Shown: positions 719-41,710 of the stretch, piece by piece
Position numbering within the stretch: the first letter of the stretch is position 1
How the letters are laid out: the number at the start of each line of letters is the position of its first letter
Assembly: GCA_964549515.1 (NCBI GenBank)
Contig: CAZJVC010000001.1
Location: 10,011-53,127 of the forward strand
Source: an uncultured Pseudomonadota bacterium
GTDB lineage: Bacteria; Babelota; Babeliae; Babelales; UBA12409
Length of the DNA: 43,117 nucleotides
Direction: 5' to 3'
Notes under the pieces: generated by a model
The model's database searches: none
The model's input: only the letters and a program-made list of their open reading frames with translations
What the model was told of the DNA's origin: nothing
Position numbers and translations under genes: made by a program

Positions 719-1798
719 ATGATAGCAGAGATACGATCCAGCCGAAAATTACAGCTCGTTCTTGCGTGCATTATTTTTTCACTGTTCCTGCACGTCGTTA
801 TGGTATATTTCAATATCGTTTTTAATAAAGTTCAGGATTATCCTGCGCCTGAACTAAAAAAAATACCTCCACGAATACAAACCAAACAAAAACCAATGAC
901 CATGATGAAACAGCCACCGCAACCTACACGACGCATTCATCGTGCTGGTACAAGCAAGCAAGCACCAAAAACAGAAAAGGCTTTGGCACCACAAAAACCA
1001 AAGCAAGCGCTCCCTCTCCCTTCCGCTGCACAACCAACACCACAACCTCCTCAACAAAAACCTCCTGAGCCCAAACAAGAACCAAAACAGGCACCGCCTA
1101 AACAGGTCTCACCTGAACAGGTCTCACCTAAACAGGTCTCACCTGAACGAATCAAGCCCAAACAGACCCAACAGGCCCATCCTAAACAAAGAATAAAAAA
1201 GACAACACAAAAAAAAGAACCTAAACCGCCGCGACAAAAACCAGTCTCTGGACGACCAGCTATGAAAAAGTTCTTTGAAGATTCTCTCAAAGAAGAACAA
1301 ACCTCGTCTGAGCGAGCTACACAAACCGATGATGAAAGAAAAACGCTAAGCTTCCTTTCACCAAACAACTTATATCATTCAATGCGCGAGCGAGCACTTA
1401 CGCAACCACAGCCAGGCATTGCGGAACAGTATGGCGACATGAAATATCTACATTACAATCAAAAAATATATCAAGCATTGCAACAGGCTATGAATATTGT
1501 CGTACGCAATCTACCTCGAGCACAGTATCAATCAGCCCTTGAATCTATTCAACACCCCGCTCGCATACGATTTGCAGTTGATAAAAATGGAAAACTAAAA
1601 GGACTTAGCCTTGTAACATCATCGGGCAATCCATATTATGATATGATTGCACAACAAGTAATCCGCGAAGCATCCTATCCACCAATACCAAAGTCCTTTA
1701 ACATGAATACGACGTATCATACATACGGCATAATACTGTATAATGATGGCAGTCCACAAAACAATCTCGGCGTCTCACCATACCTTGAAGGAGAATAA
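719..1798 (+). CDS. TonB-family energy transducer with an N-terminal TM anchor, a Pro/Lys-rich linker and a TonB C-terminal domain.
   Basis: There is a TM helix (LQLVLACIIFSLFLHVVMVYF), a long P/K/Q-rich low-complexity spacer, and a C-terminus (ARIRFAVDKNGKLKGLSLVTSSGNPYYDMIAQQVIREASYPPIP) that matches the TonB_C pattern. It contains an in-frame 15-bp x3 repeat at 1097-1148. Confidence 0.7.
   Translation: MIAEIRSSRKLQLVLACIIFSLFLHVVMVYFNIVFNKVQDYPAPELKKIPPRIQTKQKPMTMMKQPPQPTRRIHRAGTSKQAPKTEKALAPQKPKQALPLPSAAQPTPQPPQQKPPEPKQEPKQAPPKQVSPEQVSPKQVSPERIKPKQTQQAHPKQRIKKTTQKKEPKPPRQKPVSGRPAMKKFFEDSLKEEQTSSERATQTDDERKTLSFLSPNNLYHSMRERALTQPQPGIAEQYGDMKYLHYNQKIYQALQQAMNIVVRNLPRAQYQSALESIQHPARIRFAVDKNGKLKGLSLVTSSGNPYYDMIAQQVIREASYPPIPKSFNMNTTYHTYGIILYNDGSPQNNLGVSPYLEGE
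1097..1148. repeat. Three tandem copies of a 15-bp aacaggtctcacctg unit of the CAGG/CCTG family, lying in frame inside the TonB-like CDS and encoding VSPEQVSPKQVSPE.
   Basis: The tandem copies can be read directly and are the same unit as the intergenic array at 7210-7299. Confidence 0.9.
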
Positions 1799-1807
1799 TA
1801 AAACAAC

Positions 1808-3241
1808 ATGGCACACATTACTATTTTAGGCGCAGGATTAACTGGCCTTTCAACAGCATATCATCTTGAACAAATTGGTTTTTTTGATTACGAAATTTTT
1901 GAAAAAGAAAAAACAGTCGGCGGCCTATGCCGTTCGGTAGAAAAAGATGGATTCACATTTGATTATACCGGACATCTACTTCATATAAATAAAGCACCAC
2001 TTTTAGACGATTACATGTACACATTTATAAAAAAAGTTGCCGGATTTGATACATTCAATCAGCTCAATCGCAAAGCCCGCATCTACTCAGGCGGGACCCG
2101 TTCAGGTGGGACCTGTTCAGGCGAGGGCTGTTCAGGTGGGACCTGTTCAGGTGGTGTTTTAACACATTATCCATTTCAAACAAATCTGTACGGACTTCCC
2201 TCTGATATCATTGTAGAATGCATAAAGGAATATGTTACAAGAAAAAAAACAGCACACCCACGTTCATTTTACAGCTGGGTATGCACACATTTTGGCAAAG
2301 GATTTGGAAAACACTTCTTCTTTCCCTATCAAGAAAAGATTTTTTGTTACGATGTAAAAAAACTTATGTCATCATGGACTGGTCGCTTCGTGCCACAAAC
2401 ATCACTTGAAGAAATGATTGAAGGTGCACTTAAACCGAAAGATGAAAACATTGGCTATAATGCATCTTTCTATTATCCAAAATATGGTGGAATTCAAACC
2501 CTTATTAACAAGTTACAAAATCAACTTATACAACCAATACAAAGCGAATACGAAGTTACAGAACTTGACCTTGCTAAGAAAGTTATCACATTCAAAAATG
2601 GACACAAAAAGCCGTACAACATTCTTATTAATACAATTCCACTTGACACGCTACTACAAAGTATAAACGATAAAAGCACAACATCATTCAATAAAGCGAG
2701 TGGCAAACTAGAAACAACATCTGTACTTAATGTTAACTTCGGCATTAACAAACAAAATATCTCTGATAATCACTGGATATATGTACCAGAAAAATCCTAC
2801 CCTTTTTATCGCATAGGGTTTCCACACCACTTCGCCAACTACAACGCGCCAAAGAATTGCAGCTCTGTATATACCGAGTGTGCTTATATCGGACAAAAAC
2901 CAAAAAATTTAGAAAAACAGGTCATCCAAAAATCTAAAAATTTCTTAAATATCAATGATCATGAAATCATAACAACAACTACGTTAAACCTTACCCACGC
3001 GTACGTTATCTACAATAGTTGGCGCGAAAAACAATTACCACTGCTACTTGCAAGATTACAAAAAAACGGTATATACTCAATTGGTCGGTATGGTGCATGG
3101 AAATATGCAAGTATGCAGGAATCGATTTTAGATGGAAAAACAATCATCGATACATTATTCAGGCACAACCAAACCATAAAAGAAGTAATGATAGAAAATG
3201 ATGCGGTTAAATATAATAATTCTATGGTTAACAGTAAGTAA
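1808..3241 (+). CDS. FAD/NAD(P)-binding oxidoreductase with an amine-oxidase or Glf-like Rossmann N-terminus.
   Basis: The N-terminus ITILGAGLTGLSTAYHL is a GxGxxG dinucleotide-binding motif. The ORF is 477 aa and carries an in-frame repeat insertion at 2088-2150 that encodes SGGTRSGGTCSGEGCSGGTCSGG. Confidence 0.8.
   Translation: MAHITILGAGLTGLSTAYHLEQIGFFDYEIFEKEKTVGGLCRSVEKDGFTFDYTGHLLHINKAPLLDDYMYTFIKKVAGFDTFNQLNRKARIYSGGTRSGGTCSGEGCSGGTCSGGVLTHYPFQTNLYGLPSDIIVECIKEYVTRKKTAHPRSFYSWVCTHFGKGFGKHFFFPYQEKIFCYDVKKLMSSWTGRFVPQTSLEEMIEGALKPKDENIGYNASFYYPKYGGIQTLINKLQNQLIQPIQSEYEVTELDLAKKVITFKNGHKKPYNILINTIPLDTLLQSINDKSTTSFNKASGKLETTSVLNVNFGINKQNISDNHWIYVPEKSYPFYRIGFPHHFANYNAPKNCSSVYTECAYIGQKPKNLEKQVIQKSKNFLNINDHEIITTTTLNLTHAYVIYNSWREKQLPLLLARLQKNGIYSIGRYGAWKYASMQESILDGKTIIDTLFRHNQTIKEVMIENDAVKYNNSMVNSK
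2088..2150. repeat. Four tandem copies of a 15-bp unit, caggtgggacctgtt (the reverse complement of aacaggtcccacctg), in frame within the oxidoreductase CDS.
   Basis: The copies can be read directly and are the reverse complement of the 7210-7299 array unit. Confidence 0.9.
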
Positions 3242-3242
3242 T

Positions 3243-4160
3243 ATGATGAATACGTATAACTTTTACCAGCAAAAATCTGTACTTGTTACTGGGGGCGCAG
3301 GCTTCATCGGCTCCCATCTTGTCGAAGCCCTCGTACATGCAGGAGCCAACGTATCGGTTCTTGATAATTTATCAACAGGAACTCTAGACAATCTTAACGC
3401 CGTCCTCAACCACGTCACATTTATACAAGGCGACATTACCAGCTTTAGCTCTTGCTTAGCAGCAACACAAAACCAACAGATTGTTTTTCATTGTGCTGCA
3501 ATGATTAGCGTTTCTGAATCGATGAACCGCCCACGCAATTGCATGAAAACAAACGTACAAGGAACAGCAAACTTACTCGAAGCCGCACGAATCAATCGCA
3601 TAGAACGTGTTGTTTTTTCATCATCCGCCGCAATTTACGGTCCCGTTGATGGAGCATGCTCTGAAACATTGCCTCAAAAACCACAATCTATGTACGGTTT
3701 TTCTAAACAACTAGGTGAACAACTCTGCAAGCAATACTGTGAATACTTTAATCTACGTAGCATTTGTCTTCGGTATTTTAATGTATACGGCAATCGACAA
3801 AATCCAACAAGTCCATATGCTGGCGTCCGAGCAATTTTCGATCATGCTTTTAAAAATAACTTGCCAATCACTATTTACGGCGATGGCAATCAAACACGCG
3901 ACTTTATCTCCGTTAAAGATGTCGTTAAGGCAAACCTTTCACTGGCACAGCTATCAAGTAATGAGCTCAATGGTCAAGCTGTCAACATTGCAACCGGCAC
4001 AAGCAACTCACTAAATAACTTGCTTGTTGAATTCAAAAAAAATCATCCCGATTACTCACAAACAATTACGTATCAACCAGCCAGAGCCGGCGACATCAAA
4101 TATTCCAAAGCCTTGATTGAAAAATATAGAAAGCTACGTGAGTTTATTGAGGAAAGCTAA
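3243..4160 (+). CDS. NAD-dependent epimerase/dehydratase of the extended SDR family (GalE/WcaG-like).
   Basis: It has the VLVTGGAGFIGSHL Rossmann motif and a YGFSK (YxxxK) catalytic motif. The likely start ATG at 3243 lies directly after the stop of the upstream gene, and the longer ORF-track start at 3198 overlaps that gene. Confidence 0.8.
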   Translation: MMNTYNFYQQKSVLVTGGAGFIGSHLVEALVHAGANVSVLDNLSTGTLDNLNAVLNHVTFIQGDITSFSSCLAATQNQQIVFHCAAMISVSESMNRPRNCMKTNVQGTANLLEAARINRIERVVFSSSAAIYGPVDGACSETLPQKPQSMYGFSKQLGEQLCKQYCEYFNLRSICLRYFNVYGNRQNPTSPYAGVRAIFDHAFKNNLPITIYGDGNQTRDFISVKDVVKANLSLAQLSSNELNGQAVNIATGTSNSLNNLLVEFKKNHPDYSQTITYQPARAGDIKYSKALIEKYRKLREFIEES

Positions 4161-4236
4161 ATCCAATCGCTATACGTATCCAGGCATACATGATACACTA
4201 TACCTAAATATGTATCACTCTTAATTATGTAGATTT

Positions 4237-5361
4237 ATGGCAAAAAAAGATTATTACGAAATTCTTGGCGTCTCACGTGATGCATCTGCAGCTGACATTA
4301 AAGCGGCATACCGAAAATTAGCACTAAAACATCATCCCGATCGCAATCCTGGAAACAAGGAATCTGAAGAAAACTTCAAAAAAGCAGCTGAAGCATACGA
4401 AACCTTGTCCAACAAAAAAAAGCGCGACCACTTCGACCAATTTGGTGATACCGACCCTGGAGCAGGATTTGGTCAAGGCAGCAACATGAATATGGATGAC
4501 ATCTTCAACAATTTTGGTGACATTTTTGAAGGTTTTGGAGATATTTTTGGTTTCGGTTCTCAGCAAAAACAAGAAGGACCGTCACCTCGCGAAGGCCACG
4601 ACAGAACGCTTGATCTCACAATTAGCCTCAAAGAAGCATATGAGGGTGCAAAAAAAGATGTTCGCTATTACCGTCTTGAAAATTGCACTACCTGTAAAGG
4701 TAAAGGCACCAAAGAAGGAACTTCAATAGAGGGATGCAAAAAATGTGGCGGCAGAGGGCAAATACAACGCCAACAAGGCTTTTTTATCTACAGTCAAACA
4801 TGCCCAGAATGTGGGGGCCAGGGATACACAATCCCACACCCGTGCCCTACATGTAAAGGCAATTCACGCATTCAGTTCTATGAAAAATTTTCAGTAAAAA
4901 TCCCTTCCGGCATCTATGATGGCGCCGAACTCCGCATTGCTCAAAAAGGTGATGCTGGTATATATGGTGGCCCTCATGGCAACCTCTATATCCACGTTCA
5001 TGTACTACCAGACAAAAGGTTTAGACGTGAAGGTGATGACCTGGTTAGCAATCTTATCCTAACCTACCCACAACTAGTCTTTGGCTCTCAGGTAGAAATC
5101 GAAAATATCGATGGAGCAAAAAAAACGATCAAAATACCAAAAGGATGTCCTGCAGGTAATAAGATCATCATAGCGAAAAATGGATTCCCTCAAATACGTG
5201 GCCGCGGTCGAGGAAATCTTATCATAATTACGCAATGTCATATTCCTAAAAAACTTTCGCCTGAAGCACAAGAAGCTTTGAAAAAATACTCAGAATTAAT
5301 TGGTACAAACGTCAACGATGACGAAGGAACCATCTCAGGCTTCTTTAAAAAGTTTCTATAA
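4237..5361 (+). CDS. dnaJ: Molecular chaperone DnaJ.
   Basis: It has a J domain (YYEILGV...HPDRNP), a G/F-rich region and four CxxCxGxG zinc-finger repeats. Confidence 0.95.
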
Positions 5362-5460
5362 CCAACGTAAACTCGCCGTAAGAAAACTAAAAAATTGATA
5401 CGATTTTCCTTAAATCACCACATGAGTTACTACCCCTGGATGAGGAAAAAATCAAAAACT

Positions 5461-5590
5461 CCGCTCATCCTACCGTGCCAGCCGTCGCTAAAGCTATGGC
5501 TGGGAGTGCCCTTCGTAGCTCGTCAGAGCGAAGTAGGGTGTATCACTTCGACTCGATACATTCTGAGCAAAAACGAATGGTCCGAACGCT
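5461..5590. repeat. GC-rich dispersed repeat element (copy 2), related to 1-80 and 37066-37305.
   Basis: It shares cgctcatcctRcc, ggctgggagtg and a cagccgtcgctaaagctatggc segment with 37185-37240, where that segment is inverted. Its GC content is well above the surrounding sequence, and it contains CTTCG/CGAAG hairpins. Confidence 0.7.
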
Positions 5591-5774
5591 AATTTCTAAT
5601 TTTCGGATAAGCACTAACACTAACTCAAATCTAACAGCCTTTCATTTGGCACAGTAAAATAAGCACAATTCTTGAATATGTAAACTAACAGCAGATATAC
5701 AAATAATACCCACACTTTTCATTAATTTCTATTTGAAAATACCGAATCAGAGCGCTTATTAGTTAATGTAAAGC

Positions 5775-5818
5775 TTGACATTTTTTTGCAATAATCTATT
5801 ATTATATATATGTATAAT
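5775..5818 (+). promoter_or_regulatory. Candidate sigma70-like promoter upstream of the secreted-protein gene.
   Basis: A TTGACA at 5775-5780 is followed by a 17-nt spacer and ATTATT at 5798-5803. There is also a TATAAT at 5813-5818. The context is AT-rich and lies about 60 nt upstream of the ATG at 5879. Confidence 0.3.
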
Positions 5819-5878
5819 CTAACATTTTATTAAAACATCTATGATGGTTTATTGTTAATACTAATGGAGGTATTTCTT

Positions 5879-6703
5879 ATGAATAAGAAAGTAACAATTA
5901 CTTTACTCTCAGCATTTCTTTGTGCTGGTTCAATTACAAACGGCATGGAAAGTGCTTTAGTTCCTGTTGCAAAAGTTGCAACAAAAAGCATAGCTTCTGT
6001 TGTAGGGCAAATCGCTCAACATAAAGATGCTATTACAGTTGGCGGTACTTTAGGAACAGGAGCTGTTCTTGCTACAAAAAGTATCCTAAAACAAAAGGCT
6101 ACTGAAAAAGCTGCTAAAATTGCCGCTGAAAAAGCTGCTAAAATTGCCGCTAACGGTTTTGTTAAAAAAACAGCTAAAAGTGCTTTAGAAGCTGTAAAAA
6201 ATGTAAACCCTTACATCGGTTGTGTCGTTGGCGCTACTCTTGTTGGTGACGCTGTTTATCAAGGTTGGGGACGCTGGAGAAAAGAAGAAGCTAAACCAGA
6301 AGTAAAACCTGAAGAAGTAAAGCGTAGCCGCTTAGGTTCAGTTGGTCATTACCTTGGCTCAGCTGCAAAAGGTACCTATAATTGGGTATCACCATCAAAT
6401 TGGTTCTACTACTTAGCTGGTAAAACGTGCAGAGGAACTGTAGCTGGTACAAAAAAAGGTTACTCAGTTATAAAATCTACTCCTAGTGCAATAGTCGCTG
6501 GTACAAAAGCAACTTGCACAACAATAAGAAAGAAAGTTGTCGGCAGAACTGTTGATGAACTAAAAGAAGACATCGCAACAGCTGAAAGCCAAATAAGTGA
6601 GTACGCAAAAAGAATCATCGAAGCTGAACGAAGAACTGCTGCTGCAAAAGCAACGCAAGTTAAACTTCAAGCAACTATTGATGCTTCTAAAAAACAGAAA
6701 TAA
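5879..6703 (+). CDS. Secreted alanine/lysine-rich protein with a C-terminal coiled coil.
   Basis: A GGAGG ribosome-binding site at 5866-5870 precedes the ATG at 5879. The signal peptide is MNKKVTITLLSAFLCAGSITNG. There is a tandem 27-bp repeat encoding (EKAAKIAA)x2. Confidence 0.6.
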   Translation: MNKKVTITLLSAFLCAGSITNGMESALVPVAKVATKSIASVVGQIAQHKDAITVGGTLGTGAVLATKSILKQKATEKAAKIAAEKAAKIAANGFVKKTAKSALEAVKNVNPYIGCVVGATLVGDAVYQGWGRWRKEEAKPEVKPEEVKRSRLGSVGHYLGSAAKGTYNWVSPSNWFYYLAGKTCRGTVAGTKKGYSVIKSTPSAIVAGTKATCTTIRKKVVGRTVDELKEDIATAESQISEYAKRIIEAERRTAAAKATQVKLQATIDASKKQK

Positions 6704-6752
6704 ATCTTAATCTGACAGTCGCTTGCGATTGTAAAATTAAGTAATAAACATT

Positions 6753-6780
6753 GGGAGGCTTCGGCCTCCCGTTTTTTTTT
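6753..6780 (+). terminator. Rho-independent terminator.
   Basis: A perfect 7-bp stem with a 4-nt loop (gggaggc-ttcg-gcctccc) is followed by T9. Confidence 0.8.
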
Positions 6781-6866
6781 ACCCTTTTGACAAAAGTCTT
6801 TTTTATACTATAATTTTACTAATTATCTACAATATTTATTCAATTCTTTAATCACGAGGTTCGATT

Positions 6867-7211
6867 ATGAGTAAAAAAGTAACAGCCCTAGCTATTGCAC
6901 TGCTTCTAAGCACATCAATTTGCGCAGATACTGGCGCAGGAATTGCGGCAGCTAAAACTGTCACGGATGGCATCAAAAACCCCGCCGACAATATTGATCC
7001 AAAAATTGCCCAAAATACCTGGTCTTCATTCAGAAAGCTTGGCAAAGATATAAGTACTGGCGCTATAAAAGGCTTTAAAACAACCAGAGAATTCAGCAAA
7101 GAACACAGAAATGAGATACTTATTGCAGCAGGAACTATTGCAGCTGCATATGTTAGTTACCGTCTTATTAAGTGGGCAGTCGCTAAAAAAAAGCAAAGCA
7201 AGAATAAATAA
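6867..7211 (+). CDS. Small exported or membrane protein with a signal peptide and a C-terminal TM helix.
   Basis: The start MSKKVTALAIALLLSTSICA resembles the N-terminus of the upstream gene (MNKKVTITLLSA). There is a C-terminal hydrophobic segment and a K-rich tail. The stop codon abuts the repeat array. Confidence 0.5.
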   Translation: MSKKVTALAIALLLSTSICADTGAGIAAAKTVTDGIKNPADNIDPKIAQNTWSSFRKLGKDISTGAIKGFKTTREFSKEHRNEILIAAGTIAAAYVSYRLIKWAVAKKKQSKNK

Positions 7212-7299
7212 CAGGTCCCACCTGAACAGGTCCCACCTGAACAGGTCCCACCTGAACAGGTCTCACCTGAACAGGTCTCACCTGAACAGGCCCCACCTG
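7210..7299. repeat. Intergenic tandem array of six copies of a 15-bp unit, aacaggtcccacctg, of the CAGG/CCTG family.
   Basis: The copies can be read directly. Units 4-5 carry a c-to-t variant and unit 6 a t-to-c variant. Confidence 0.95.
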
Positions 7300-7328
7300 A
7301 AAACGAGTAATCGTTAAAAAATTAACCG

Positions 7329-7365
7329 GGCCTGGAGCGACTTTTGTAGCTCCAGGCCTCTTTTC
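7329..7365. terminator. Bidirectional rho-independent terminator between the convergent 6867-7211 gene and sbcC.
   Basis: The stem gcctggagc/gctccaggc encloses a 10-nt loop and is flanked by T-rich tracts on both strands. Confidence 0.6.
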
Positions 7366-7370
7366 TATTC

Positions 7371-9710
7371 TTATCCCTGCTCAATCACGCGCACCAAACT
7401 GCCAAGCGCCGTTTTTTCAATAAAGAAATGAACCGGAAACTGATCCTTCATCGTAGATAAATGTGAAACAACAATAATCTTCGCAAAATCATCCTGAATC
7501 TTATACAAAGCATCCATGATAAGGGAAAGCCCATCTTCATCTTGTGAACCAAACCCCTCATCAATGATCAACGTTTGCAATGATGCCCCCGCACGACGTG
7601 CTAAAAGCTTCGAGATTGCAATGCGCAGTGCAAAGTCGATGCGAAACGCCTCTCCACCAGAAAAAAGCTCATACGGGCGAATTCCTGCGTTATCTGATAT
7701 TTTAATATCAAGCGTCTCTCGTGTGCCGCCTTTTTTTAAATCACGTACAGATTCAATCATAATTTGAGCATTCTGATCACTTAGCTGTGCAAGAAGCTTA
7801 TTAGCCTCTTCCTCTATCTCCGGAATGACCGACTCAATAAGTAATGCTTGAATACCATCCTTACCTAACGCCTCGCTGATTACTTTATATTCTGCAATTT
7901 CACTCTCAAGGGACTTTTTTGTCACTTCGTACTTTTTTCGTTCTATAGATAACTTTTGGATACGAAGCTGCTCATGCTCCAAGCGCGTTTTTTGCTGCAA
8001 TAACTGATTTCCTTTTTCAGTATGTTGAAGCATAAGTTGCTGAATCTCTATCTCGCGCTCTTTAAACTCTGTCTCTTTTTGATCAAATGAAACGTTCTTT
8101 TTGAATTGCGCTAAGTCTTGTTCGGCAATCTGTCGTTGCGTTAACAATTTTTTATATTGTATATCCTGCTCAAGCTCATTTTGTTGCTTGTTTTTCAATT
8201 CTTGCAATTTTTGCTGCACAACATACGCCTGTTCTTTTAATCTTTTTTTTGTCTCTTCAGATTGGGTCAAAACTTTAACATGCTTTTCAAACTCTGTGTG
8301 TATGATAAAAGAACGCACAGAAATATCTTTATACTGAGATTCAACAGTAATAATATGCTGCACTTCTTTTTCCAGCTCTTTTATGCGGCCATGCTCAAGC
8401 ATCAACAAATCTTTAGATTCCTGAACAAATAACTTAATACGCCTAAGACGATGCTGATAAAAAGATACTTTTTTTTTCAATGTATATTTAAGTTGTTCTC
8501 TGGTTTTACCAGAAAGTGACTGCTCACATAATGGACATACACTATCTTTGCATGAACTCGCTTGCTTCTCATGATCAAGCACAATACGCAATTCACGATC
8601 AACTAAATTACCATTCCCAATCATACGTTGATACACATCTTTGCGTCTTTCAAAAAGTTCTCGCGCTGCAACATGCGACTTTGTTATTTGATCTTTTCTT
8701 GCAAGCTCTTTTTCATAATTCGTTAAAACCTTACGAATACTCTTAAATTCATCATCTAATGTTTTTTTCTGTTTCTCGATATATGAATGCCGTTCTTCTG
8801 CTGCCTGACATTGTGAAAGTAATCTTGCCCCCAAAACCTCTTGCTCTTTATGTACCTGTGTACATTTTAACTCATAGGCATGATTATACACTTGAAGCTT
8901 TTCACCATTTTGAGCACACACACGCTCTAACAAATAAATTTTCTCTTTGTGTGAATATAACTCATCACGGTCCTTTTGCACTTCTTTTTGTTTAACGACT
9001 AATGCAGCAGCCTCTTCTTTAAGAACCACCTCTTCATGCTCCAAGCTCCCTAACGTTTCTTCTAATGTTTTGAGCTCATCAACCTCTTCATTCAATAGCT
9101 CAAGCAATTGCTTAAGGCCATCACGCTTGCTGGCGCGCTCTCGTATTTTTTCTAGCACCACTTTACGAATGCGCTCATAATAATCTAATCCTAAAATCAG
9201 CGCTAAAATCTCTTTTCTTTCTCGCGCTGATTTTTTAGAAAACTCATTTGCTTGCCCCTGACGTAAAAATACAGAATTCGCAAAAGTCTCGAAATTAAGC
9301 CCTACAATCTCTTCAATTTTTTGTTGCGTTGCGCGAATTGTCTTCTCTGTTAGCGGCTTAAGTTTTTTTTCACTTTGATCATACAGACCAAATTCCAGCG
9401 TAGATCGTGCTTTTGAGCCACATAAAACAAGCTCCCGGTAAACACTGTATCGTTCGCCTTGGCACAAAAAATCAAATTGAACCGACATTTTATCATTGCC
9501 AAGCCGAATAAGAGCTTCATCAGCACGCGAAACACCACTTACCTTGCGCGCATGCCCCCATACTGACCACGTTATTGCATCAAGAAGTGCTGATTTCCCG
9601 TGCCCATTTTTTCCAGATAGGCACATAAGCGTATACGGTTCAAAATTTATCAACTGTTCTGTGTCGCCATAACTTAAAAAATTTCGTATCTTGAGTTGAA
9701 TTGGAATCAT
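7371..9710 (-). CDS. sbcC: SbcC-family DNA repair exonuclease ATPase subunit of the SMC/Rad50 type (779 aa).
   Basis: The N-terminus has a Walker A motif (LSGKNGHGKSALLDAITWSVWG), followed by a long coiled coil. There is a central CPLC zinc hook, and the C-terminus has a Walker B/D-loop (LIIDEGFGSQDEDG). Confidence 0.85.
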   Translation of the reverse strand: MIPIQLKIRNFLSYGDTEQLINFEPYTLMCLSGKNGHGKSALLDAITWSVWGHARKVSGVSRADEALIRLGNDKMSVQFDFLCQGERYSVYRELVLCGSKARSTLEFGLYDQSEKKLKPLTEKTIRATQQKIEEIVGLNFETFANSVFLRQGQANEFSKKSARERKEILALILGLDYYERIRKVVLEKIRERASKRDGLKQLLELLNEEVDELKTLEETLGSLEHEEVVLKEEAAALVVKQKEVQKDRDELYSHKEKIYLLERVCAQNGEKLQVYNHAYELKCTQVHKEQEVLGARLLSQCQAAEERHSYIEKQKKTLDDEFKSIRKVLTNYEKELARKDQITKSHVAARELFERRKDVYQRMIGNGNLVDRELRIVLDHEKQASSCKDSVCPLCEQSLSGKTREQLKYTLKKKVSFYQHRLRRIKLFVQESKDLLMLEHGRIKELEKEVQHIITVESQYKDISVRSFIIHTEFEKHVKVLTQSEETKKRLKEQAYVVQQKLQELKNKQQNELEQDIQYKKLLTQRQIAEQDLAQFKKNVSFDQKETEFKEREIEIQQLMLQHTEKGNQLLQQKTRLEHEQLRIQKLSIERKKYEVTKKSLESEIAEYKVISEALGKDGIQALLIESVIPEIEEEANKLLAQLSDQNAQIMIESVRDLKKGGTRETLDIKISDNAGIRPYELFSGGEAFRIDFALRIAISKLLARRAGASLQTLIIDEGFGSQDEDGLSLIMDALYKIQDDFAKIIVVSHLSTMKDQFPVHFFIEKTALGSLVRVIEQG

Positions 9711-9790
9711 ATGTTTTACTGGCCTCTTTATTGATAGCTTTATTTAGTTTAAAATAAACTACAAAAAAGTGAATAATTTAGGAATTATCA

Positions 9791-11194
9791 ATGCAAGCAG
9801 AAACGTTCAAAAAATACGACATCCGAGGCATCGTCAACAAAGATCTCATTATCGAAGATACTTATAAAGTTGCCCAAGCCATTGCTCACCATTTTAAACA
9901 AAAAAATCCAAATGTCACCGATCTTGTAGTTGGCATGGATGGACGAATACATTCACCCGCAATCAAAGAACAAATCTGCAACGGATTACGTGACAGCGGA
10001 ATTAATGTTACATTCATCGGCGTATGTTCAACACCAATTTTTTACTTTGCCAATGAAACACTCGATGCAGACGGAGGCATCATGATTACAGCCTCACACA
10101 ACCCTAAAATATATAATGGTCTAAAAATTACTTTTAATAAAAAAAGTGTATTTGATGCAGAAATTCAAGCAATTAAAGATCTCTTTTTTAATGGTACTTT
10201 TTCAAAAACATTAATGCGTGGCTCATATAACGAAAAATCGGTAACCGATGCATACATTCAAATGCTCGTTAATAATTTTAGTCATTTAAAAAACAAACCA
10301 ATAAATGCCATAATCGATTGCGCGCATGGAGCAACTGCAGTTGTCATTCCTGAGCTAGTTAAACAAATGAACTGGGAAAATGTTAAGCTCATGTACGCAA
10401 CAATAGATGGCGCATTCCCTGCACATGAAGCAGATCCAACAAAACCAGAAAACACTAAAGAATTACGACAAAGAATCAAAGAACACAATATCAACATCGG
10501 TATCAGCTTTGATGGCGATGGTGATCGAATGTGCGCATTAACAGAAAATGGCACCATGATGAGCGGTGACGAACTCACAACAATTTTTTGTGAAGCTATT
10601 AAAAAAGAAGTCGGGCCATTCAATCTCGTTTCTGACATTAAATGCGCAAGCGCCTTACTCAAAAAATTAAAAGAATTAGATCTTACTTGTACACTTACCC
10701 CATGTGGCATTGGCTTTGTTCGTGAAGCTATGCGCAAAACACATGCACTTTTTGGCGGAGAGCTCAGCTGTCATTTCTGTTTTAATGATCGATACTTTGG
10801 ATATGATGATGGCGTATATGCCATGATGCGACTCTTTGAATTGCTTGATAAGCAACAAACAAAATTAAGCACTCTGTATAACCAATTACCACAACGTTTT
10901 TGTTCTCCTGAATTACGTTTAGAAAGTTCACACGACAAAAAATGGACTATTGTCAAAGAAATTAAAAATAAACTCGCGCAACGAGATGACATAAAACTTA
11001 CAACCATTGACGGCATACGCGCAGAAACATCATACGGATGCGCAACATTGCGCGCTTCAAATACTGAGCCGGTTATTTCTACAAGATTTGAAGGTTCAAA
11101 TCCAAGCAATCTCAATAAAATTATTTCTGAATTTTATGACTTATTAGTACCGTATTTCGACGAATCATATATAACGAATAAATTAAGTGAATAA
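9791..11194 (+). CDS. Phosphomannomutase/phosphoglucomutase.
   Basis: It carries the active-site motif TASHNPKIYNGLK, the metal-binding motif FDGDGDR, and an N-terminus (KKYDIRGIV) typical of ManB/AlgC. Confidence 0.9.
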   Translation: MQAETFKKYDIRGIVNKDLIIEDTYKVAQAIAHHFKQKNPNVTDLVVGMDGRIHSPAIKEQICNGLRDSGINVTFIGVCSTPIFYFANETLDADGGIMITASHNPKIYNGLKITFNKKSVFDAEIQAIKDLFFNGTFSKTLMRGSYNEKSVTDAYIQMLVNNFSHLKNKPINAIIDCAHGATAVVIPELVKQMNWENVKLMYATIDGAFPAHEADPTKPENTKELRQRIKEHNINIGISFDGDGDRMCALTENGTMMSGDELTTIFCEAIKKEVGPFNLVSDIKCASALLKKLKELDLTCTLTPCGIGFVREAMRKTHALFGGELSCHFCFNDRYFGYDDGVYAMMRLFELLDKQQTKLSTLYNQLPQRFCSPELRLESSHDKKWTIVKEIKNKLAQRDDIKLTTIDGIRAETSYGCATLRASNTEPVISTRFEGSNPSNLNKIISEFYDLLVPYFDESYITNKLSE

Positions 11195-12005
11195 ACAAGT
11201 TGGCATTCATATAATATTGCATAAAACAATAACACAGGTTGCGCAAAAAGCTCTCGAGCTTGAAATTCCTATATTCCAAACATTTGCTATTACCAACGCT
11301 AAGCAACCATTTGTTCTAACAGAGCAAGATAAAAAGTCCTTTTTACAAATACGGCACAATTTTGACGCCATCTTTTTGCATGCTTCATATTGGATCAATT
11401 GTGCAAACAATAAGTCCAAGGCTGAACGACTGCTTTCACGCGAAATTATTATTGCACAAAATCTTGAAATTCCTTTTATTGTTCTTCACCCTGGCGCAAT
11501 TGCGCCAGATCAATCAAGAAAAGAAGGAATCGATTTAATCGCACAGCGCATCAATACAATTCTGTCTAAATTTCCAAACATCGTGATATTGCTAGAAAAC
11601 ATCGCTCACGATAAACGTTCAATTGGCGGTAACATCAAGGACCTTTCCCTAATCATGAACAATATCGACAAACCAGAACGTGTAGGCTTTTGCATTGATA
11701 CAGCTCATGCATACGTGTATGGATACAACATTGCCGACGAAGATGAACAAAAAAACTTTATAGATGAGCTTAAAGCAATCAATATTCTTGATCGAATCAA
11801 ATTAATACACCTTAACGACACCATGGAACACTGTGGCTCTAAAATTGATATACACGCAGCTCCTGGCGACGGATTAATTGGAAAGAAAGCGCTTCAAGCA
11901 TTTATTTCTCATCCTGCGTTCCAAACAACACCGCTCATTCTTGAAATACCAAAACTTGAAGATTCTCAAGAAGCTCATATAGTAAAAACAATAACGAAAT
12001 GGTAA
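11187..12005 (+). CDS. nfo: Endonuclease IV, an apurinic/apyrimidinic endonuclease with a xylose-isomerase-like TIM barrel.
   Basis: The motifs CIDTAHAYVYGYN, HLNDTMEHCGSKIDIH and PLILEIP match conserved Nfo metal-ligand motifs. The apparent GTG start overlaps the stop of the upstream gene. Confidence 0.8.
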   Translation: MNKQVGIHIILHKTITQVAQKALELEIPIFQTFAITNAKQPFVLTEQDKKSFLQIRHNFDAIFLHASYWINCANNKSKAERLLSREIIIAQNLEIPFIVLHPGAIAPDQSRKEGIDLIAQRINTILSKFPNIVILLENIAHDKRSIGGNIKDLSLIMNNIDKPERVGFCIDTAHAYVYGYNIADEDEQKNFIDELKAINILDRIKLIHLNDTMEHCGSKIDIHAAPGDGLIGKKALQAFISHPAFQTTPLILEIPKLEDSQEAHIVKTITKW

Positions 12006-12018
12006 GGAAAAAACTGTT

Positions 12019-13080
12019 ATGATCAATATAGCATTGAATGGATTTGGTAGGATTGGAAGAAACTTTTTACGATCACTAATCACCGACAAAACCGCTCAAA
12101 AAACACTCAATTTAGTCGCCCTTAATATCGGGCCAGCAAATCTCAATGATCTTGTCTATTCGGTTAAATATGATTCGCTAATGGGAACATTTGACGGAAA
12201 TGTTTCATATAGCAATGACATACTAACTATCAATAATCTTGAAATCAAAGTTTTAACTGAATGTAATCCAGAAAATCTTCCATGGAAAGATCTTCAAATC
12301 GACTGGGTTGTGGAGGCAACCGGACGCTTCACCAATCGACCTGACGCAAAAAAACATTTAGAGGCAGGCGCCAAAAAAGTTCTTATTTCGGCACCAGCGA
12401 CAGATGAAGATTGCTCAATCGTTCCTGGGGTTAATGATGAAGTATATAAAAATAGTGACACTATCATTTCACTTGGAAGTTGTACAACCAACGCACTTGC
12501 ACCAACATTATATGTCATCAACAACGAATTTGGAATTGAAAGTGGAGCACTCACAACAATCCATTCATACACCAACTCACAAGTATTACTCGATGTCGAT
12601 GATACAAAAACCCGCCTCACACGAGCAGCTGCAATCAACATGATTCCATCTTCAACTGGTGCCACCAAGGTAATCGGCAAAGTAATACCTGAGTTAAAAG
12701 GAAAAATCATCGGAAATTCCGTTCGTATTCCGATACCAAAAATTTCATTAATTGATGTTGTCGTTAAACTAAAAAAAGAAGCTTCAAAAGAAGCTATCAA
12801 TAAAGCCTTTGAACAAGCAAAACAAAATTATCCTGTTCAGGATAATCCTGAACAGGATAATCCTGAACAGGATAATCCTGAAAAAAATCGCCTAAAAGGT
12901 ATCTTAGATATTACGTATGAGCCGTTGGTATCAATAGATTATTATGGAAACCCGCACTCTGTCATTATTGATGCCCAGCTAACCGAAACACACGGCAACT
13001 TGGCAAAAATATTTGGCTGGTATGACAATGAATGGGCATACAGCGTGCGCATGAAAGAGTTTCTAATTAAGCACAGATAA
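12019..13080 (+). CDS. gap: Glyceraldehyde-3-phosphate dehydrogenase with an in-frame repeat insertion near its C-terminus.
   Basis: It has the NGFGRIGR Rossmann motif, the SCTTN catalytic Cys region and a WYDNEWAYS C-terminus. A QDNPEQDNPEQDNPE insertion is encoded at 12832-12882. Confidence 0.9.
   Translation: MINIALNGFGRIGRNFLRSLITDKTAQKTLNLVALNIGPANLNDLVYSVKYDSLMGTFDGNVSYSNDILTINNLEIKVLTECNPENLPWKDLQIDWVVEATGRFTNRPDAKKHLEAGAKKVLISAPATDEDCSIVPGVNDEVYKNSDTIISLGSCTTNALAPTLYVINNEFGIESGALTTIHSYTNSQVLLDVDDTKTRLTRAAAINMIPSSTGATKVIGKVIPELKGKIIGNSVRIPIPKISLIDVVVKLKKEASKEAINKAFEQAKQNYPVQDNPEQDNPEQDNPEKNRLKGILDITYEPLVSIDYYGNPHSVIIDAQLTETHGNLAKIFGWYDNEWAYSVRMKEFLIKHR
12832..12882. repeat. Three tandem copies of caggataatcctgaa of the CAGG/CCTG palindromic family, lying in frame within gap.
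   Basis: The sequence cctgttcagg(ataatcctgaacagg)x2ataatcctgaa can be read directly. Each CAGG-ATAAT-CCTG is a hairpin-capable palindrome. Confidence 0.9.
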
Positions 13081-13136: not shown

Positions 13137-13212
13137 GGGCCCATAGCTCAGTGGTTAGAGCAGTCGGCTCATAACCGAAAGGTCCCAGGTTCAAATCCTG
13201 GTGGGCCCACCA
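13137..13212 (+). tRNA. tRNA with anticodon CAU (Met; the lysidine-Ile alternative cannot be excluded), with an encoded CCA end.
   Basis: The acceptor stem is gggccca/tgggccc, the D-arm is tagctcagtggttagagc, the anticodon loop is ctCATaa, the T-arm is ggttcaaatcc, and a 3' CCA follows a discriminator A. The gene is 76 nt. Confidence 0.85.
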
Positions 13213-35217: not shown

Positions 35218-35489
35218 AGCTCTAAAAACCTTATAGTTTTAGTGATACTTATATTAATATTTTCTTAATTAAAATCAGGATTATCCTAAAATAGAATCCT
35301 AAAATACGCTATTGATGTGCTCATTGAACAAAAACAGCGAGCATTTCTTATTAATTCTACTCTTTTTCTTAAATTTTTCAAGTGGAATAAACAAATCATT
35401 CCTGACTTTAAAGGAATTGCATAAAAAAACAAAACTGTTAGTCTCATTACAAATTATATTTTACCATTAAATTCAAGGGAGCGTCTATA

Positions 35490-36599: not shown

Positions 36600-36605
36600 A
36601 AACAG

Positions 36606-36642
36606 GCTAAGACTGTTCAGGATTATCCTGAACAGTCTTAGC
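36606..36642. repeat. Perfect 16-bp-arm palindrome built around a CAGG-ATTAT-CCTG module, lying immediately 3' of rseP.
   Basis: The sequence is gctaagactgttcagg attat cctgaacagtcttagc. It is probably a stem-loop that acts as a transcript-end or stabiliser element for rseP, but no T-run follows it. Confidence 0.8.
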
Positions 36643-37030: not shown

Positions 37031-37065
37031 TTATTCAATTCTATAACTTGCGGTTTTTTTTCTTC

Positions 37066-37305
37066 GTTCATCCTGCCGTGCCCGCCCCTTCGTCAAGCTC
37101 AGGGTAAACTACATCCTGAGTAGCACAAAGTGCGTATCGAAGGGTCCGCTCATCCTGCCCTTCGACAGGCTCAGGATAAAATTGTATCGAAGGACGCTCA
37201 TCCTGCCTATCCGCCATAGCTTTAGCGACGGCTGGGAGTGATTTGCGAAGCAAATTGTATCGAAGGACGAAAATACTCAGGATAAACTCTGGGTGCGAGC
37301 GAATT
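37066..37305. repeat. GC-rich dispersed repeat element (copy 3) with an internal, degenerate tandem structure.
   Basis: It contains gtatcgaagg x3, ctcaggataaa x3 and cgctcatcctgcc x3, and shares segments with 1-80 and 5461-5590. Its GC content is far above the surrounding sequence. Confidence 0.75.
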
Positions 37306-39486: not shown

Positions 39487-40116
39487 CTACTTTGGGATTC
39501 TTAACGCCAGTATCTGGTTCTGAAATTTCTGGCTAAATTTAGAACCACAAACTTCAACTGGCAAACGTATTTCTTCACTTTGTTCATGGCCTTTTGAATC
39601 CTTAAACACAATACTTACTCTTTTCTCTTGCGCATAAACTTTAATATTTTCTTCTCGCACACCTAGAAGTTCCATGATTATTACCATTTCATGATCTTCA
39701 TCAAAAATATCTATAGGCAGCGCCTTTTTTTTCAATGTCTCAATTGATTGTTTCCACTTCTCAGGATTTCGCACTGCGATAAAAAGCCGCTTGAGGATAA
39801 TCCTGTTGTGCAAATTATTAGTCCAATTATTAGTCCAAAAAAGATTAAGTTGAGGCACCTTCTTACCAAAAATCCATTTTCTTTTTACTATCTCCATCGC
39901 CTGAATATCGCGCAGAAAAAATGCAAATTTAACTTTTTTCACTTGCACAAAAAGAAGCCTCTTATTGGTAAGATACAAAAGACCAGGCCTCCAGACAGAA
40001 AAGAGTGAACCTACATCGTAAGAAGCAGTATAATAAAATATAACCCTCTCCCCTCTCATCAAAGGGAACGGGATTGGTCTTTCTATAAGATCTAATGTAT
40101 ATTTCCTATATCTCAT
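39487..40116 (-). CDS. Two-domain protein with an N-terminal bacterial PH-like (bPH_2-type) domain and a C-terminal truncated alpha-crystallin/Hsp20-like domain (GvpH-like).
   Basis: The N-terminal region has RPGLLYLTNKRLLFVQ (G.L.LTN.RL.F). The C-terminal region, LGVREENIKVYAQEKRVSIVFKD...IRLPVEVCGSKFSQKFQNQILALRIPK, matches the ACD pattern (LPGV..EDI.V......L.I...LP....F...F.NG.L.I..PK). It is paralogous to 40106-40648. Confidence 0.5.
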   Translation of the reverse strand: MRYRKYTLDLIERPIPFPLMRGERVIFYYTASYDVGSLFSVWRPGLLYLTNKRLLFVQVKKVKFAFFLRDIQAMEIVKRKWIFGKKVPQLNLFWTNNWTNNLHNRIILKRLFIAVRNPEKWKQSIETLKKKALPIDIFDEDHEMVIIMELLGVREENIKVYAQEKRVSIVFKDSKGHEQSEEIRLPVEVCGSKFSQKFQNQILALRIPK

Positions 40117-40648
40117 TTTTTGGTATCTTTATTGTAAGCATTTGATTTTGAAACTTCCGACTAAATTCTGAAGTGCAAACCCGTCTAGGCAAATTTATTT
40201 CTTCACCTTGCTCAATGCCTTCTCTATCTTTAAATAAAATATTTAGCGTTTTCTCTTGAACGTCAATCTTGATATCTTCTTCTTGCACACCTGGAAGCCC
40301 TACAATTATTACTGTCTCTTTGGCTTCCTCAAAAACATCTACCAGTAATCCTACAGATATCTTTGCTTCTTCACTTCTTTTTTCGGTTAACCACCAACTA
40401 AACAAAACTTTTTCGCCAGTTTGAACATCAATATGCAACTTTTCAAATACTAGTATCGGCTTTCTTAGAATTTTTAAGGCTCGCGCGTTTATAACATCCT
40501 TAATTCTCATCAAGCTATTCATATCGCTGGATTCACCAAAAATCTCTGTTAGCTCATCAAGCCTTGCATGCCTATGTTCCAGGAGATGTGAAATTGCATT
40601 ACGGCTCCTTAAATCTAATTCATTGAGAAGTCGCTCAAGGTTGGCCAT
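40106..40648 (-). CDS. Hsp20/alpha-crystallin-like (GvpH-like) protein with an N-terminal helical domain of unknown function.
   Basis: The C-terminus, IIVGLPGVQEEDIKIDVQEKTLNILFKD...INLPRRVCTSEFSRKFQNQMLTIKIPK, has the ACD pattern and is paralogous to the preceding gene. Confidence 0.5.
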   Translation of the reverse strand: MANLERLLNELDLRSRNAISHLLEHRHARLDELTEIFGESSDMNSLMRIKDVINARALKILRKPILVFEKLHIDVQTGEKVLFSWWLTEKRSEEAKISVGLLVDVFEEAKETVIIVGLPGVQEEDIKIDVQEKTLNILFKDREGIEQGEEINLPRRVCTSEFSRKFQNQMLTIKIPKNEI

Positions 40649-40947
40649 TATACTAACTCAGGAGAAATTTTTTTCTTCCGATGCTCTGTTTCCCAAGCCC
40701 TGGTTTCCTCATCCCAAGCCTGCATTACCCCATATTTAAGCATAGTCTCCATCCCAGCCAATGCTGCACGCAAGTTAATACCAATTAAAGGAACTCCGGC
40801 AACCGAGATAATAATATCAGCATTAATTACCAAGCCCTTATCTAAAGCCCGATCTAATAAGTCTACCAAGGTTGCTTGTGTGGTTCTCTCAAATTCACCA
40901 TCGAGCGGCTCTGTGACAACAGATTTCATTTTTACACCTTTATACAA
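40648..40947 (-). CDS. Gas vesicle structural protein family member (GvpA/J/M-like).
   Basis: LVDLLDRALDKGLVINADIIISVAGVPLIGINLRAALAGMETMLKYG matches the GvpA-family core (L.D..DR.LDKG.V...D...S..G.EL..I..R...AS.ET...Y). An alternative start lies at 40929. Confidence 0.75.
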   Translation of the reverse strand: MYKGVKMKSVVTEPLDGEFERTTQATLVDLLDRALDKGLVINADIIISVAGVPLIGINLRAALAGMETMLKYGVMQAWDEETRAWETEHRKKKISPELV

Positions 40948-41710
40948 AACTATACGGCGCCCAAGGGCCAGTAAAACGAACAGAAAACTCTTCTAAATGG
41001 TCAATTTTTATGAGCTCTCTGCTCAATATCTTAATATTCTCTTTAGGAAGCAAGCAAGAAAAATTTAGCAACATCTGCTTATCAACCACAGGCTTTTTTG
41101 TTCTTTCAACTTTAATTTCATCTACACATTTTTTAATTCTGTCATAAAAATCTTTGAAACAGCTCGTTGCTTTCTCTTCTATTTTCTTTCGCAAAAGTTT
41201 CTCAAGTTTTTGCTTATACATATAAGCTAAGCCGCGAGATTTAGACTTTATCTCTTCATTTAACTTATTAATCTCAGAATCATTTTCTATCAAGCGCTCC
41301 CCAACCAACTTAGGAAACCAAAAAATCTGAATGCCATACTCAGCTTTGCCTTTAACTTTAGTCAATTTCTGTTTCAAATTTTCATAATCATCATGTATCC
41401 AGCGCTTCAAATTTTCCTTAGCTTCAATCCCTTCTTCACCTTTAATTATTGTACTAAAACCTAAAGGTAAAATTGTGCCAAATCTTTGCCAGGCGGCATC
41501 GATAGTTTTTTGATGAGCTATTATCCACTTTGTTACTATCTTGTCATTTTCAGATTTATAGAAAGTTATGGGAGAATCATGAACTATAGCACATAGGTCT
41601 TGATAAGCAATAGTATAAACTTTATTTTCATCAACCCCCATATTGCCAAAATTTATTTTTTCATTTCCTTCCGCTAGACAGTAAAGATATAAGCCATTTG
41701 CCATTTTCAA
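40940..41710 (-). CDS. Gas vesicle protein of the GvpF/GvpL family.
   Basis: The N-terminus GLYLYCLAEG...VYTIAYQDLCAIVHD and the C-terminus FTGPWAPYSFV are both characteristic of GvpF/L. It is translationally coupled to its neighbours by 4-8 nt overlaps. Confidence 0.8.
   Translation of the reverse strand: MKMANGLYLYCLAEGNEKINFGNMGVDENKVYTIAYQDLCAIVHDSPITFYKSENDKIVTKWIIAHQKTIDAAWQRFGTILPLGFSTIIKGEEGIEAKENLKRWIHDDYENLKQKLTKVKGKAEYGIQIFWFPKLVGERLIENDSEINKLNEEIKSKSRGLAYMYKQKLEKLLRKKIEEKATSCFKDFYDRIKKCVDEIKVERTKKPVVDKQMLLNFSCLLPKENIKILSRELIKIDHLEEFSVRFTGPWAPYSFV

Follow-up and report, generated by a model that had tools for sequence, protein, structure and literature searches.

How small can a DNA repeat be and still be found dispersed through a bacterial genome, in frame, inside genes of central metabolism? 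This question is raised by a stretch of 43,117 nucleotides from contig CAZJVC010000001.1 (assembly GCA_964549515.1, positions 10,011 to 53,127 of the forward strand; this whole stretch is hereafter called the window), in which a sequence-only reading had noticed short palindromic repeats built from CAGG and CCTG modules, and had described them as a selfish, coding-tolerant family that inserts as tandem arrays. The window is DNA of a Dependentiae (TM6/Babeliales) population and has a G+C content of 38.9%. Homologues of its glyceraldehyde-3-phosphate dehydrogenase (GAPDH) are labelled 'Candidatus Dependentiae' or 'Babeliales', and one homologue of its TonB-like protein is labelled 'candidate division TM6'. 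As set out below, the CAGG/CCTG family is a dispersed palindromic minisatellite that operates at the level of DNA, and is not a protein motif.

A 15-bp palindromic unit dispersed through one population

The repeat unit is 15 bp long and consists of an AA spacer and CAGG-N-nnn-N′-CCTG, a 13-nt palindrome with 5-bp arms and a 3-nt loop. A 5-nt loop had been proposed earlier; the accompanying idea that the cores fold as hairpins holds, but the two ends of that supposed loop are complementary and belong to the arms. The 10-bp core CCTGAACAGG is invariant at about 100 sites, genic as well as intergenic. The units are far from occurring at a chance frequency: with at most one mismatch, the composite motif CAGGNNNNNCCTGWWCAGG has 31 matches in the window, against 0.00 expected from 100 shuffles, and the population contigs described below contain 37 distinct solo units, against 1.7 expected.

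For the window, ORF (open reading frame) coordinates were taken from an ORF list and domains from Pfam, and arrays were located with Tandem Repeats Finder and by direct reading of the sequence. There are four tandem arrays, one each in the genes for the TonB-like protein, for an amine-oxidase-like flavin adenine dinucleotide (FAD) enzyme and for GAPDH, and one between genes, in addition to solo and relic units; Tandem Repeats Finder places the period-15 arrays at 1097-1148, 2087-2154, 7210-7301 and 12830-12882. The TonB-like array (1088-1148, + strand) has four units, CAGGCACCGCCTA and then CAGGTCTCACCTG/A variants, and lies in the ORF at 719-1798, which encodes a TonB-C domain and in which the array is in frame as Q-x-x-P-E/K, reading QVSPE/QVSPK. 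The FAD array (2087-2154, - strand) has about 4.5 units in reverse orientation within the amine-oxidase/FAD ORF at 1808-3241. It is read on the + strand as S-G-x-x-C (SGGTC/SGEGC), and is the reverse complement of the intergenic array that begins at 7210, with 88-90% identity over 68 nt. The GAPDH array (12827-12882, + strand, ORF 12019-13080) has one inverted unit, ATTATCCTGTT, followed by three direct units, CAGGATAATCCTGAA, and encodes NYPV-QDNPE-QDNPE-QDNPE. The three genic arrays and the frames originally assigned to them are thus confirmed.

A metagenome scan for two adjacent units carrying the loop types of the window returned 59 loci, nearly all of which come from one small JGI sample set and have a G+C content of 35-40%. 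The samples of this population include JGI 3300005917, 3300005935, 3300005936, 3300025661 and 3300025736 and ENA ERZ27315541. Where contigs of these loci overlap, their median identity is 99.8%, and the loci therefore represent one population. Together with the window, they hold 116 arrays at 65 distinct sites, of which 61 are in this population, for which the data set comprises about 370 kb of array-containing contigs. The arrays are 30-135 bp long and have 2-9 units each. Identical arrays with identical flanks were found in independent JGI, ENA and Logan assemblies. Scans of viral contigs with two patterns gave 0 matches, and hence no sign of a viral source. A search of proteins with a synthetic (SGGTC/SGETC...)n peptide yielded no candidates, though the FAD oxidoreductase of the window contains several five-residue words of the query, and this negative therefore says nothing about taxonomic spread.

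Some arrays were also found outside this sample set. Two contigs from other environments, with a G+C content of 35-38%, carry arrays of the same type (L142 3819-3861, from Ga0181520, and L151 378-435, from Ga0308411), one of them in a heparinase-like ORF, on the opposite strand, where it reads CSGETC three times. A metagenome-assembled genome named 'Spirochaetes bacterium RSWP19', whose contigs carry flagellin, glycogen synthase and histidine-biosynthesis genes, has two intergenic arrays of like architecture (L072 3368-3438 and L101 4860-4931), with CAGG-T..A-CCTG plus AA or TT and with periods of 15 and 14. Palindromic minisatellites of this general design may thus not be confined to Dependentiae.

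Palindromy is maintained at the DNA level

Evidence that the palindrome itself matters comes from the pair of positions that flank the loop. Positions 5 and 9 form a Watson-Crick pair in 176 of the 205 units with exact arms, i.e. 86%, against 34% expected from the marginals, and three pair types are found (T-A, A-T and C-G). As controls we used arrays in the CAGG-N5-CCTG frame from unrelated genomes, mostly PEQxx linkers, which had been picked up in a scan of genome contigs with the loose palindromic pattern CCTGWWCAGGNNNNNCCTGWWCAGG; among the matches listed, which do not include the source genome, this pattern also has single matches in unrelated phyla. In the control arrays, positions 5 and 9 are Watson-Crick in just 39%. 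In the Q-x-x-P-E frame, position 5 is the second base of codon 2 and position 9 the third base of codon 3, so that protein selection cannot explain the coupling. Palindromy is thus maintained at the DNA level.

Folded as DNA, a single unit forms a hairpin with a 5-bp stem and a 3-nt loop at -3.6 kcal/mol, and whole arrays form long interrupted hairpins, with z from -4.4 to -9.9 in three of the four longer stretches folded and only -1.4 in the fourth, the FAD array. A search of the window with Rfam 15 gave no family at gathering score on the arrays, its sole match being a tRNA at 13137-13209. A link to restriction sites (EcoNI CCTN5AGG, AlwNI and BslI) was dropped, as the spacing does not fit.

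Arrays occupy conserved genes in all stop-free frames

Of the 61 array sites, 41 (about two thirds) lie inside ORFs of at least 180 aa, and the other 20 are at places without a long ORF. The reading frame of the host is open throughout every genic array. About 27 host ORFs, covering 31 array sites, have a Pfam identity, and many are conserved housekeeping genes. In replication and repair, they encode DNA polymerase I (PolA, at aa 375-404), PriA, DnaX (two arrays) and RadA; in translation, arginyl-tRNA synthetase (ArgRS), glutamyl-tRNA synthetase (GluRS, two arrays) and a class II aminoacyl-tRNA synthetase. Metabolic hosts are phosphoglycerate kinase (PGK), phosphoglucose isomerase (PGI), phosphoribosyl pyrophosphate (PRPP) synthetase (two arrays), MurA, a Mur ligase and a 2-hydroxyacid dehydrogenase. 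The envelope and transport proteins BamA, secretin, HtrA, CorA and an ABC ATPase are also represented, as are VWA, ankyrin and TPR proteins. The arrays are divided about evenly between those placed in termini or inter-domain linkers and those that split a catalytic domain; the ArgRS array, with nine units that add 45 aa, lies within the catalytic domain.

We classified the frame at 40 of the 41 genic sites, leaving out one whose orientation is ambiguous. The frame Q-x-x-P-E is used at 24 sites and N-R-x-x-L at 5, and on the opposite strand Q-x-x-P-V is used at 8 sites, S-G-x-x-C at 2 and F-R-x-x-L at 1. The sixth frame carries TGA, so all five stop-free frames, on both strands, are in use, and the PGK array is read in the hydrophobic form N-R-I-I-L. 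The description of the family as coding-tolerant, and as present inside genes as well as between them, is therefore borne out well beyond the window in which it was made.

Arrays are absent from orthologues

If the genic copies were ancestral low-complexity regions, they should be present in distant orthologues, but the arrays in GAPDH, the FAD enzyme and the TonB-like protein are absent from all orthologues compared. The GAPDH stretch QNYPVQDNPEQDNPEQDNPE corresponds to a 20-column gap in 15 of 15 orthologues at 55-70% identity, and a 98%-identical GAPDH from sister samples has exactly one QDNPE fewer. In an AlphaFold2 model of GAPDH, the inserted residues form a loop with a pLDDT (predicted local distance difference test) score below 50, directly after the helix at 257-268. 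The FAD enzyme has an exact 20-aa insertion, TRSGGTCSGEGCSGGTCSGG, opposite a 20-column gap in 12 homologues. The TonB-like array, which sits in a natively Pro-rich linker, falls in a gap in 8 orthologues. The same ORF contains a solo unit, CAGGATTATCCTG (833-845, + strand), an exact match read as Q-D-Y-P. Opposite it, 7 of the 8 orthologues in the alignment have a gap of 4 columns, and the remaining one is without that N-terminal region; this unit had been recognized before, but at 836-848. Elsewhere in the population, the PGK array NRIILNRIILNRIILSRIIL is an insertion relative to the PDB entry 7zy7.

Furthermore, three relatives with conserved gene order (L172-L174, with 19-21 kb syntenic in each) contain neither CAGGN5CCTG nor CCTGWWCAGG. 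Judged by these alignments, the three intragenic arrays of the window are lineage-specific, and the comparisons place the origin or invasion of the family after the separation of this Dependentiae lineage from relatives whose GAPDH is about 65% identical. Neither of the two findings that would have refuted the sequence-only reading, a motif frequency expected by chance and genic copies shared with distant orthologues, was thus made, and that reading is supported as far as it can be tested.

The relatives have long coding tandem repeats of their own (L172 4244-4469, L174 2819-3102 and L173 1416-1666). These have periods of 15 (GAAGCTGAACGTGTA-like) and 27, and lie in hypothetical proteins syntenic to the window ORF at 5852-6703.

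Arrays change length in whole units

Among the 34 sites seen in at least two contigs, 12 vary in length, and at 10 of these the difference is a multiple of 15 bp. Across samples, the intergenic array at 7210-7301 has 4, 6 or 7 units, the GAPDH array 2 or 3 direct units, and the TonB-like array 4 or 5 units, with one more in the sister contig L141 than in the window. Arrays thus grow and shrink in whole units. At the other two sites, the repeated unit is a variant, of 16 bp (spacer GAG, +32 bp) in a C-terminal tail (L113 8262-8289 versus L128 from 11488) and of 14 bp (+14 bp) in an ORF-poor stretch (L136 from 5346 versus L157). The earlier statement that the unit is always 15 bp is therefore correct for the window but not for the same genome elsewhere. 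The confinement of the 14- and 16-bp variants to these two places, one non-coding and one C-terminal, is as expected if it is selection, and not the mechanism, that enforces multiples of three in genes.

Adjacent units are identical in 53% of cases, and the loop distance is 1.10 for neighbouring units, 1.56 for units of one array and 3.08 for units of different arrays, an internal structure that points to local duplication. However, local duplication is not the whole story. At 27 of the 61 sites, an array mixes loops that differ at three or more of five positions, and single loop types recur at as many as 17 sites, from which it follows that units, or blocks of them, have moved from site to site. 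At three sites, two of them in the window, the orientation flips inside the array, at or beside a palindromic unit, which is the signature of strand switching. The edges of arrays fade into degenerate units, with no terminal signature visible.

Possible origins of the family

On balance, we favour the explanation that the family is a lineage-specific dispersed palindromic minisatellite, which grows by slippage, is dispersed by template switching or short-homology recombination, and is filtered by purifying selection. Under this explanation, array length would change by replication slippage on a hairpin-prone repeat, and slippage is well supported as the source of local growth. New sites would be reached, and arrays mixed, by template switching or short-homology recombination on the 10-bp core, and inverted junctions would result from strand switching at perfectly palindromic units. 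The fifth arm pair would be kept complementary either by intramolecular hairpin-templated correction or by selection for the hairpin. Genic copies would then be filtered by purifying selection, so that only units of 15 bp (5 codons) persist and only in the five stop-free frames, for the most part in the hydrophilic Q-x-x-P-E/V frames and at positions in loops, linkers or termini. The repeat, which has no demonstrated benefit, behaves like DNA that is tolerated or selfish and that makes proteins longer and more diverse.

Several points weigh against this explanation. The arrival of units at new loci has to be inferred throughout, because among the population contigs we observed no empty site, new insertion or target-site signature. 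The sole hint is that 16 of the 37 solo units are flanked by the same dinucleotide (AA..AA or TT..TT), with 2 discordant, and such flanks could equally well stem from a 2-bp duplication, from AA microhomology or from the collapse of an array. The terms 'selfish' and 'inserts as arrays' in the sequence-only reading are likewise interpretations, as no insertion event or empty site was observed in the contigs examined, and no mobilising enzyme among the ORFs scanned. Moreover, the loci were chosen because they contain arrays, which biases their densities upwards. The strong excess of Q-x-x-P frames (32 of 40 genic sites) shows that protein-level selection heavily shapes the distribution. Finally, array orientation is biased with respect to local strand composition, measured as GC skew (47 to 14, P = 3e-5, confounded with gene orientation), and this bias could point instead to a strand-specific enzyme or a replication-linked process. 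We set replication-strand polarity aside as evidence on mechanism, given that the skew signal is confounded in this way.

Both the directional flanks of the solo units and the orientation bias would suit an enzyme-mobilised mini-element, whose hairpin is acted upon in trans by a single-strand DNA transposase of the HUH/Y1 type (IS200/IS605 TnpA or RAYT-like) or by another recombinase, with 15-bp units or whole arrays being inserted at new sites and slippage only tuning copy number afterwards. The conservation of the hairpin with compensatory changes at the fifth pair, the like unit types at many loci and mixed within arrays, and the sharp limitation of the family to one lineage would also agree with this proposal. 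We nevertheless regard this main rival as unlikely. With a 5-bp stem, a 3-nt loop and 15 bp in total, the unit is far below the size of repetitive extragenic palindromic (REP) sequences (20-40 bp, PMC3733652) or of IS200/IS605 ends, and it has no GTAG or CGTC tag; arrays decay at their edges where sharp ends would be anticipated; and no transposase domain was present among the 58 ORFs scanned, which are a small, non-random sample that includes 10 from other organisms. A related and equally doubtful idea is that the 15-bp unit is itself a genuinely mobile element, the smallest known: a 13-nt hairpin copied into single-stranded DNA sites, by a dedicated enzyme or hairpin-primed replication, homing into existing arrays, and pre-adapted to coding DNA in being 5 codons long with 5 of 6 frames open. 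If true, such a unit would be a continuing source of new loops and linkers in the essential proteins of a reduced genome.

The remaining alternatives are less probable still. An invariant core at about 100 genic and intergenic sites, a strand-related orientation bias and a perfect intergenic palindrome just past a gene end could all be seen in a functional motif that selection holds at high copy (for protein binding, uptake, methylation or chromosome organisation), comparable to HIP1 or DNA uptake sequences, with arrays as a by-product. HIP1 is an 8-bp motif and not an insertion. Hypervariable tandem arrays within catalytic domains (GAPDH, PGK, ArgRS and MurA) are not normal for motifs of this kind, copy number varies among co-existing strains, relatives of like gene order are entirely without the motif, and Rfam has no match to it, all of which makes a functional motif improbable. 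The codons themselves suggest another possibility, since CCT-GAA-CAG encodes P-E-Q: low-complexity coding repeats could have arisen independently as P-E-Q-rich linkers under protein selection. Period-15 CCTGAACAGGNNNNN arrays that encode PEQxx do occur sporadically in many unrelated phyla, the Q-x-x-P-E frame predominates among the genic sites, and the linker around the TonB-like array is Pro-rich in its own right. Yet 16 genic sites are in other frames, including those on the opposite strand and N-R-I-I-L in PGK, 20 array sites and many solo units are non-coding, the covariation of positions 5 and 9 is a property of this family that the control arrays lack, and the density of sites in one genome speaks against independent origins. 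Independent low-complexity repeats are thus already contradicted by the frame, strand and covariation data, and we give them very little credence. Least credible of all is an assembly or sequencing artefact of short-read metagenomes. Assemblers can collapse or mis-join repeats, and the window does start inside a repeat, but the same arrays and flanks recur across independent assemblies, array lengths are within read length, host frames are open across every genic array, and length variants differ by whole units.

Comparison with known repeat systems

The sequence-only reading had likened the family to the Rickettsia palindromic elements (RPEs), which, in the summary that PMC10969869 gives of Ogata et al. 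(2000, 2002), are about 100-150 bp long, have one copy per site and lie, as selfish palindromes, in frame in unrelated genes of an obligately intracellular bacterium. The analogy is a good one with respect to function. Both families are palindromic, belong to obligately host-associated bacteria, lie in frame in many unrelated metabolic and housekeeping genes as well as between genes, and are tolerated as added surface peptide; like RPEs, the 15-bp family makes in-frame insertions that orthologues lack. Membership in the RPEs, however, fails on size, on single copy per site and on fixed frame. Each RPE family encodes one conserved peptide in a fixed frame, whereas five frames on both strands are used here, and the unit of 15 bp is usually in tandem (2-9) or solo. 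In addition, copy number is hypervariable among co-existing strains, the phylum is a different one, and there is no sequence similarity. By analogy, the CAGG/CCTG family is functionally closest to the RPEs, as an RPE-like phenomenon brought about by a 15-bp tandem unit in a new phylum.

REP sequences are imperfect palindromes of 20-40 bp with a GTAG or CGTC tag at one end, and are extragenic (PMC3733652); REP/REPIN elements are mobilised by RAYT transposases (PMC3733652, PMC3116915). They share with the present family that they are short dispersed hairpin repeats with compensatory stem changes, sometimes clustered in alternating orientation. The differences are the 13-nt hairpin with its AA spacer, the absence of GTAG/CGTC, and the location of 41 of 61 array sites in ORFs. 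No RAYT (Y1 transposase) was seen among the 58 ORFs scanned, in a search that was not exhaustive. PARCELs, whose 25-residue (75 bp) amphipathic repeat domain is found in ORFs of unassigned function, often membrane proteins (PMC2996958), also combine tandem coding repeats with DNA dyad symmetry, variable number and apparent spread within a genome. However, PARCELs are not insertions into conserved enzymes, whereas the present units have 5 residues and are inserted in annotated enzymes.

With respect to its dynamics, each array taken by itself qualifies as a coding variable-number tandem repeat (VNTR) or minisatellite, with head-to-tail units whose length is a multiple of three, whole-unit variation among strains and slippage-like behaviour. 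VNTRs, however, are locus-specific and usually in surface or contingency genes, and here one family of units that share an invariant core occupies some 100 sites, among them genes for enzymes of core replication, translation and glycolysis, in both orientations and also between genes. Miniature inverted-repeat transposable elements have terminal inverted repeats, a body of 50-500 bp and a target-site duplication, but here there is no body, the total is 15 bp and the edges decay. CRISPR arrays have repeats of 23-50 bp with unique spacers of like length, and the present units abut with a 2-nt spacer. In Ripley's model, quasipalindrome-templated mutation, or template switching, copies a change in one arm of a palindrome to the other. 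Such a process would explain both the covariation of positions 5 and 9 and the orientation flips at perfect palindromes. It is a mutational mechanism and not a family of elements, though, and is not known to place one and the same unit at many loci.

Cyanobacterial small dispersed repeats (SDRs) are reportedly 21-27 nt long, with a conserved predicted hairpin, compensatory changes and a mostly non-coding location. Like the present units, they are tiny dispersed hairpins that lie amid short tandem repeats and may be the smallest mobile elements, but they are not 5-codon units that form in-frame arrays in housekeeping genes. We consider SDRs the closest precedent for very small dispersing hairpins. 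They are the subject of Elhai et al. (2008), as cited in PMC3116915 and PMC4390886. In the literature on repeats or palindromes of Dependentiae/TM6, we found no description of such a family, just ankyrin and other protein repeats.

Implications

For in-frame selfish palindromes in essential genes, there has been essentially one textbook case, the RPEs of Rickettsia. The family described here adds a second one that is independent of it, from an unrelated phylum that likewise depends on hosts, and with a unit about ten times smaller. Since copy number differs among co-existing strains, the process can be watched and not only reconstructed. The arrays thereby provide a natural experiment on how conserved enzymes (GAPDH, PGK, ArgRS, PolA and MurA) tolerate random peptide insertion, on the birth of new protein loops and linkers, and on the lower size limit of a dispersing DNA element. 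The density of sites and the identity of the host genes would surprise a specialist in bacterial genome evolution, and the dynamics are testable with existing metagenome series. As a practical matter, the arrays make sequences look more divergent than they are, disrupt short-read assemblies and can lead orthologue alignments astray in metagenome genomes of Dependentiae.

Intergenic and relic copies in the window

The intergenic array (7210-7301, + strand) has six units and lies between convergent genes. The observation that it starts on a stop codon was accurate: it begins on the TAA of an ORF of 114 aa at 6867-7211, past which the frame stays open for 32 codons as Q-V-P-P-E. This ORF is membrane-anchored, and the AA of its TAA stop is the spacer of the first repeat unit. 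Its orthologues in the relatives have 149-161 aa, a length comparison consistent with the idea that the repeat may have truncated or replaced the C-terminal tail. On the other side, an SbcC-like ORF (7371-9710, - strand, with AAA_23 and SbcC_Walker_B domains) ends about 70 bp from the array. SbcC is a subunit of a nuclease that attacks DNA hairpins. The juxtaposition is probably a coincidence, though it bears on the question of how hairpin repeats are tolerated in a genome of this kind.

Three units form an inverted triplet at 36603-36642 (no strand assigned), 3′ of an M50 peptidase ORF. Within it, the perfect palindrome that had been reported at 36606-36642 is indeed present, with 37 nt centred on CAGGATTATCCTG, and the triplet folds as DNA at -19 kcal/mol (z = -9.9). 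Two further copies proved to be smaller or more degenerate than first described. In the intergenic region at 35276-35310, there is just one unit, CAGGATTATCCTA (35276-35288, + strand), with one mismatch, and the copy placed at 39789-39803 is only a relic with one mismatch, GAGGATAATCCTG (39793-39805, + strand). The latter lies in an ORF (39487-40116, - strand) that has no Pfam match and adjoins gas-vesicle genes.

A second repeat family and a gas-vesicle cluster

An 18-bp array at 1-55 had been considered a relative of the CAGG/CCTG units. We rejected this kinship, because the array (three units, GCCATGCCCGTTCATCCT) has no CAGG...CCTG module and is part of a different, G+C-rich dispersed family, which has no sequence relation to the CAGG/CCTG units. 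This second family occupies 1-90, 5440-5560 and 37060-37290 of the window and is built from the modules CGYTCATCCTGCC, CTTCGACAGGCTCAGG and TTGTATCGAAGGA. Beyond the 18-bp array, further copies are at 5462, 37065, 37147 and 37195, and a 23-mer at 5478-5500 recurs inverted at 37213-37235. The first module, CGYTCATCCTGCC, has 46 matches at 21 loci in the window and the population contigs.

The gas-vesicle cluster spans 40106-42864 on the - strand. It includes two Gas_vesicle (GvpA/J-type) ORFs (40648-40947 and 42511-42864), GvpL/GvpF (40940-41710), GvpK (41707-42030) and an Hsp20-like ORF (40106-40648). Such genes would not be expected in a phylum whose members are known to live as parasites inside protists.

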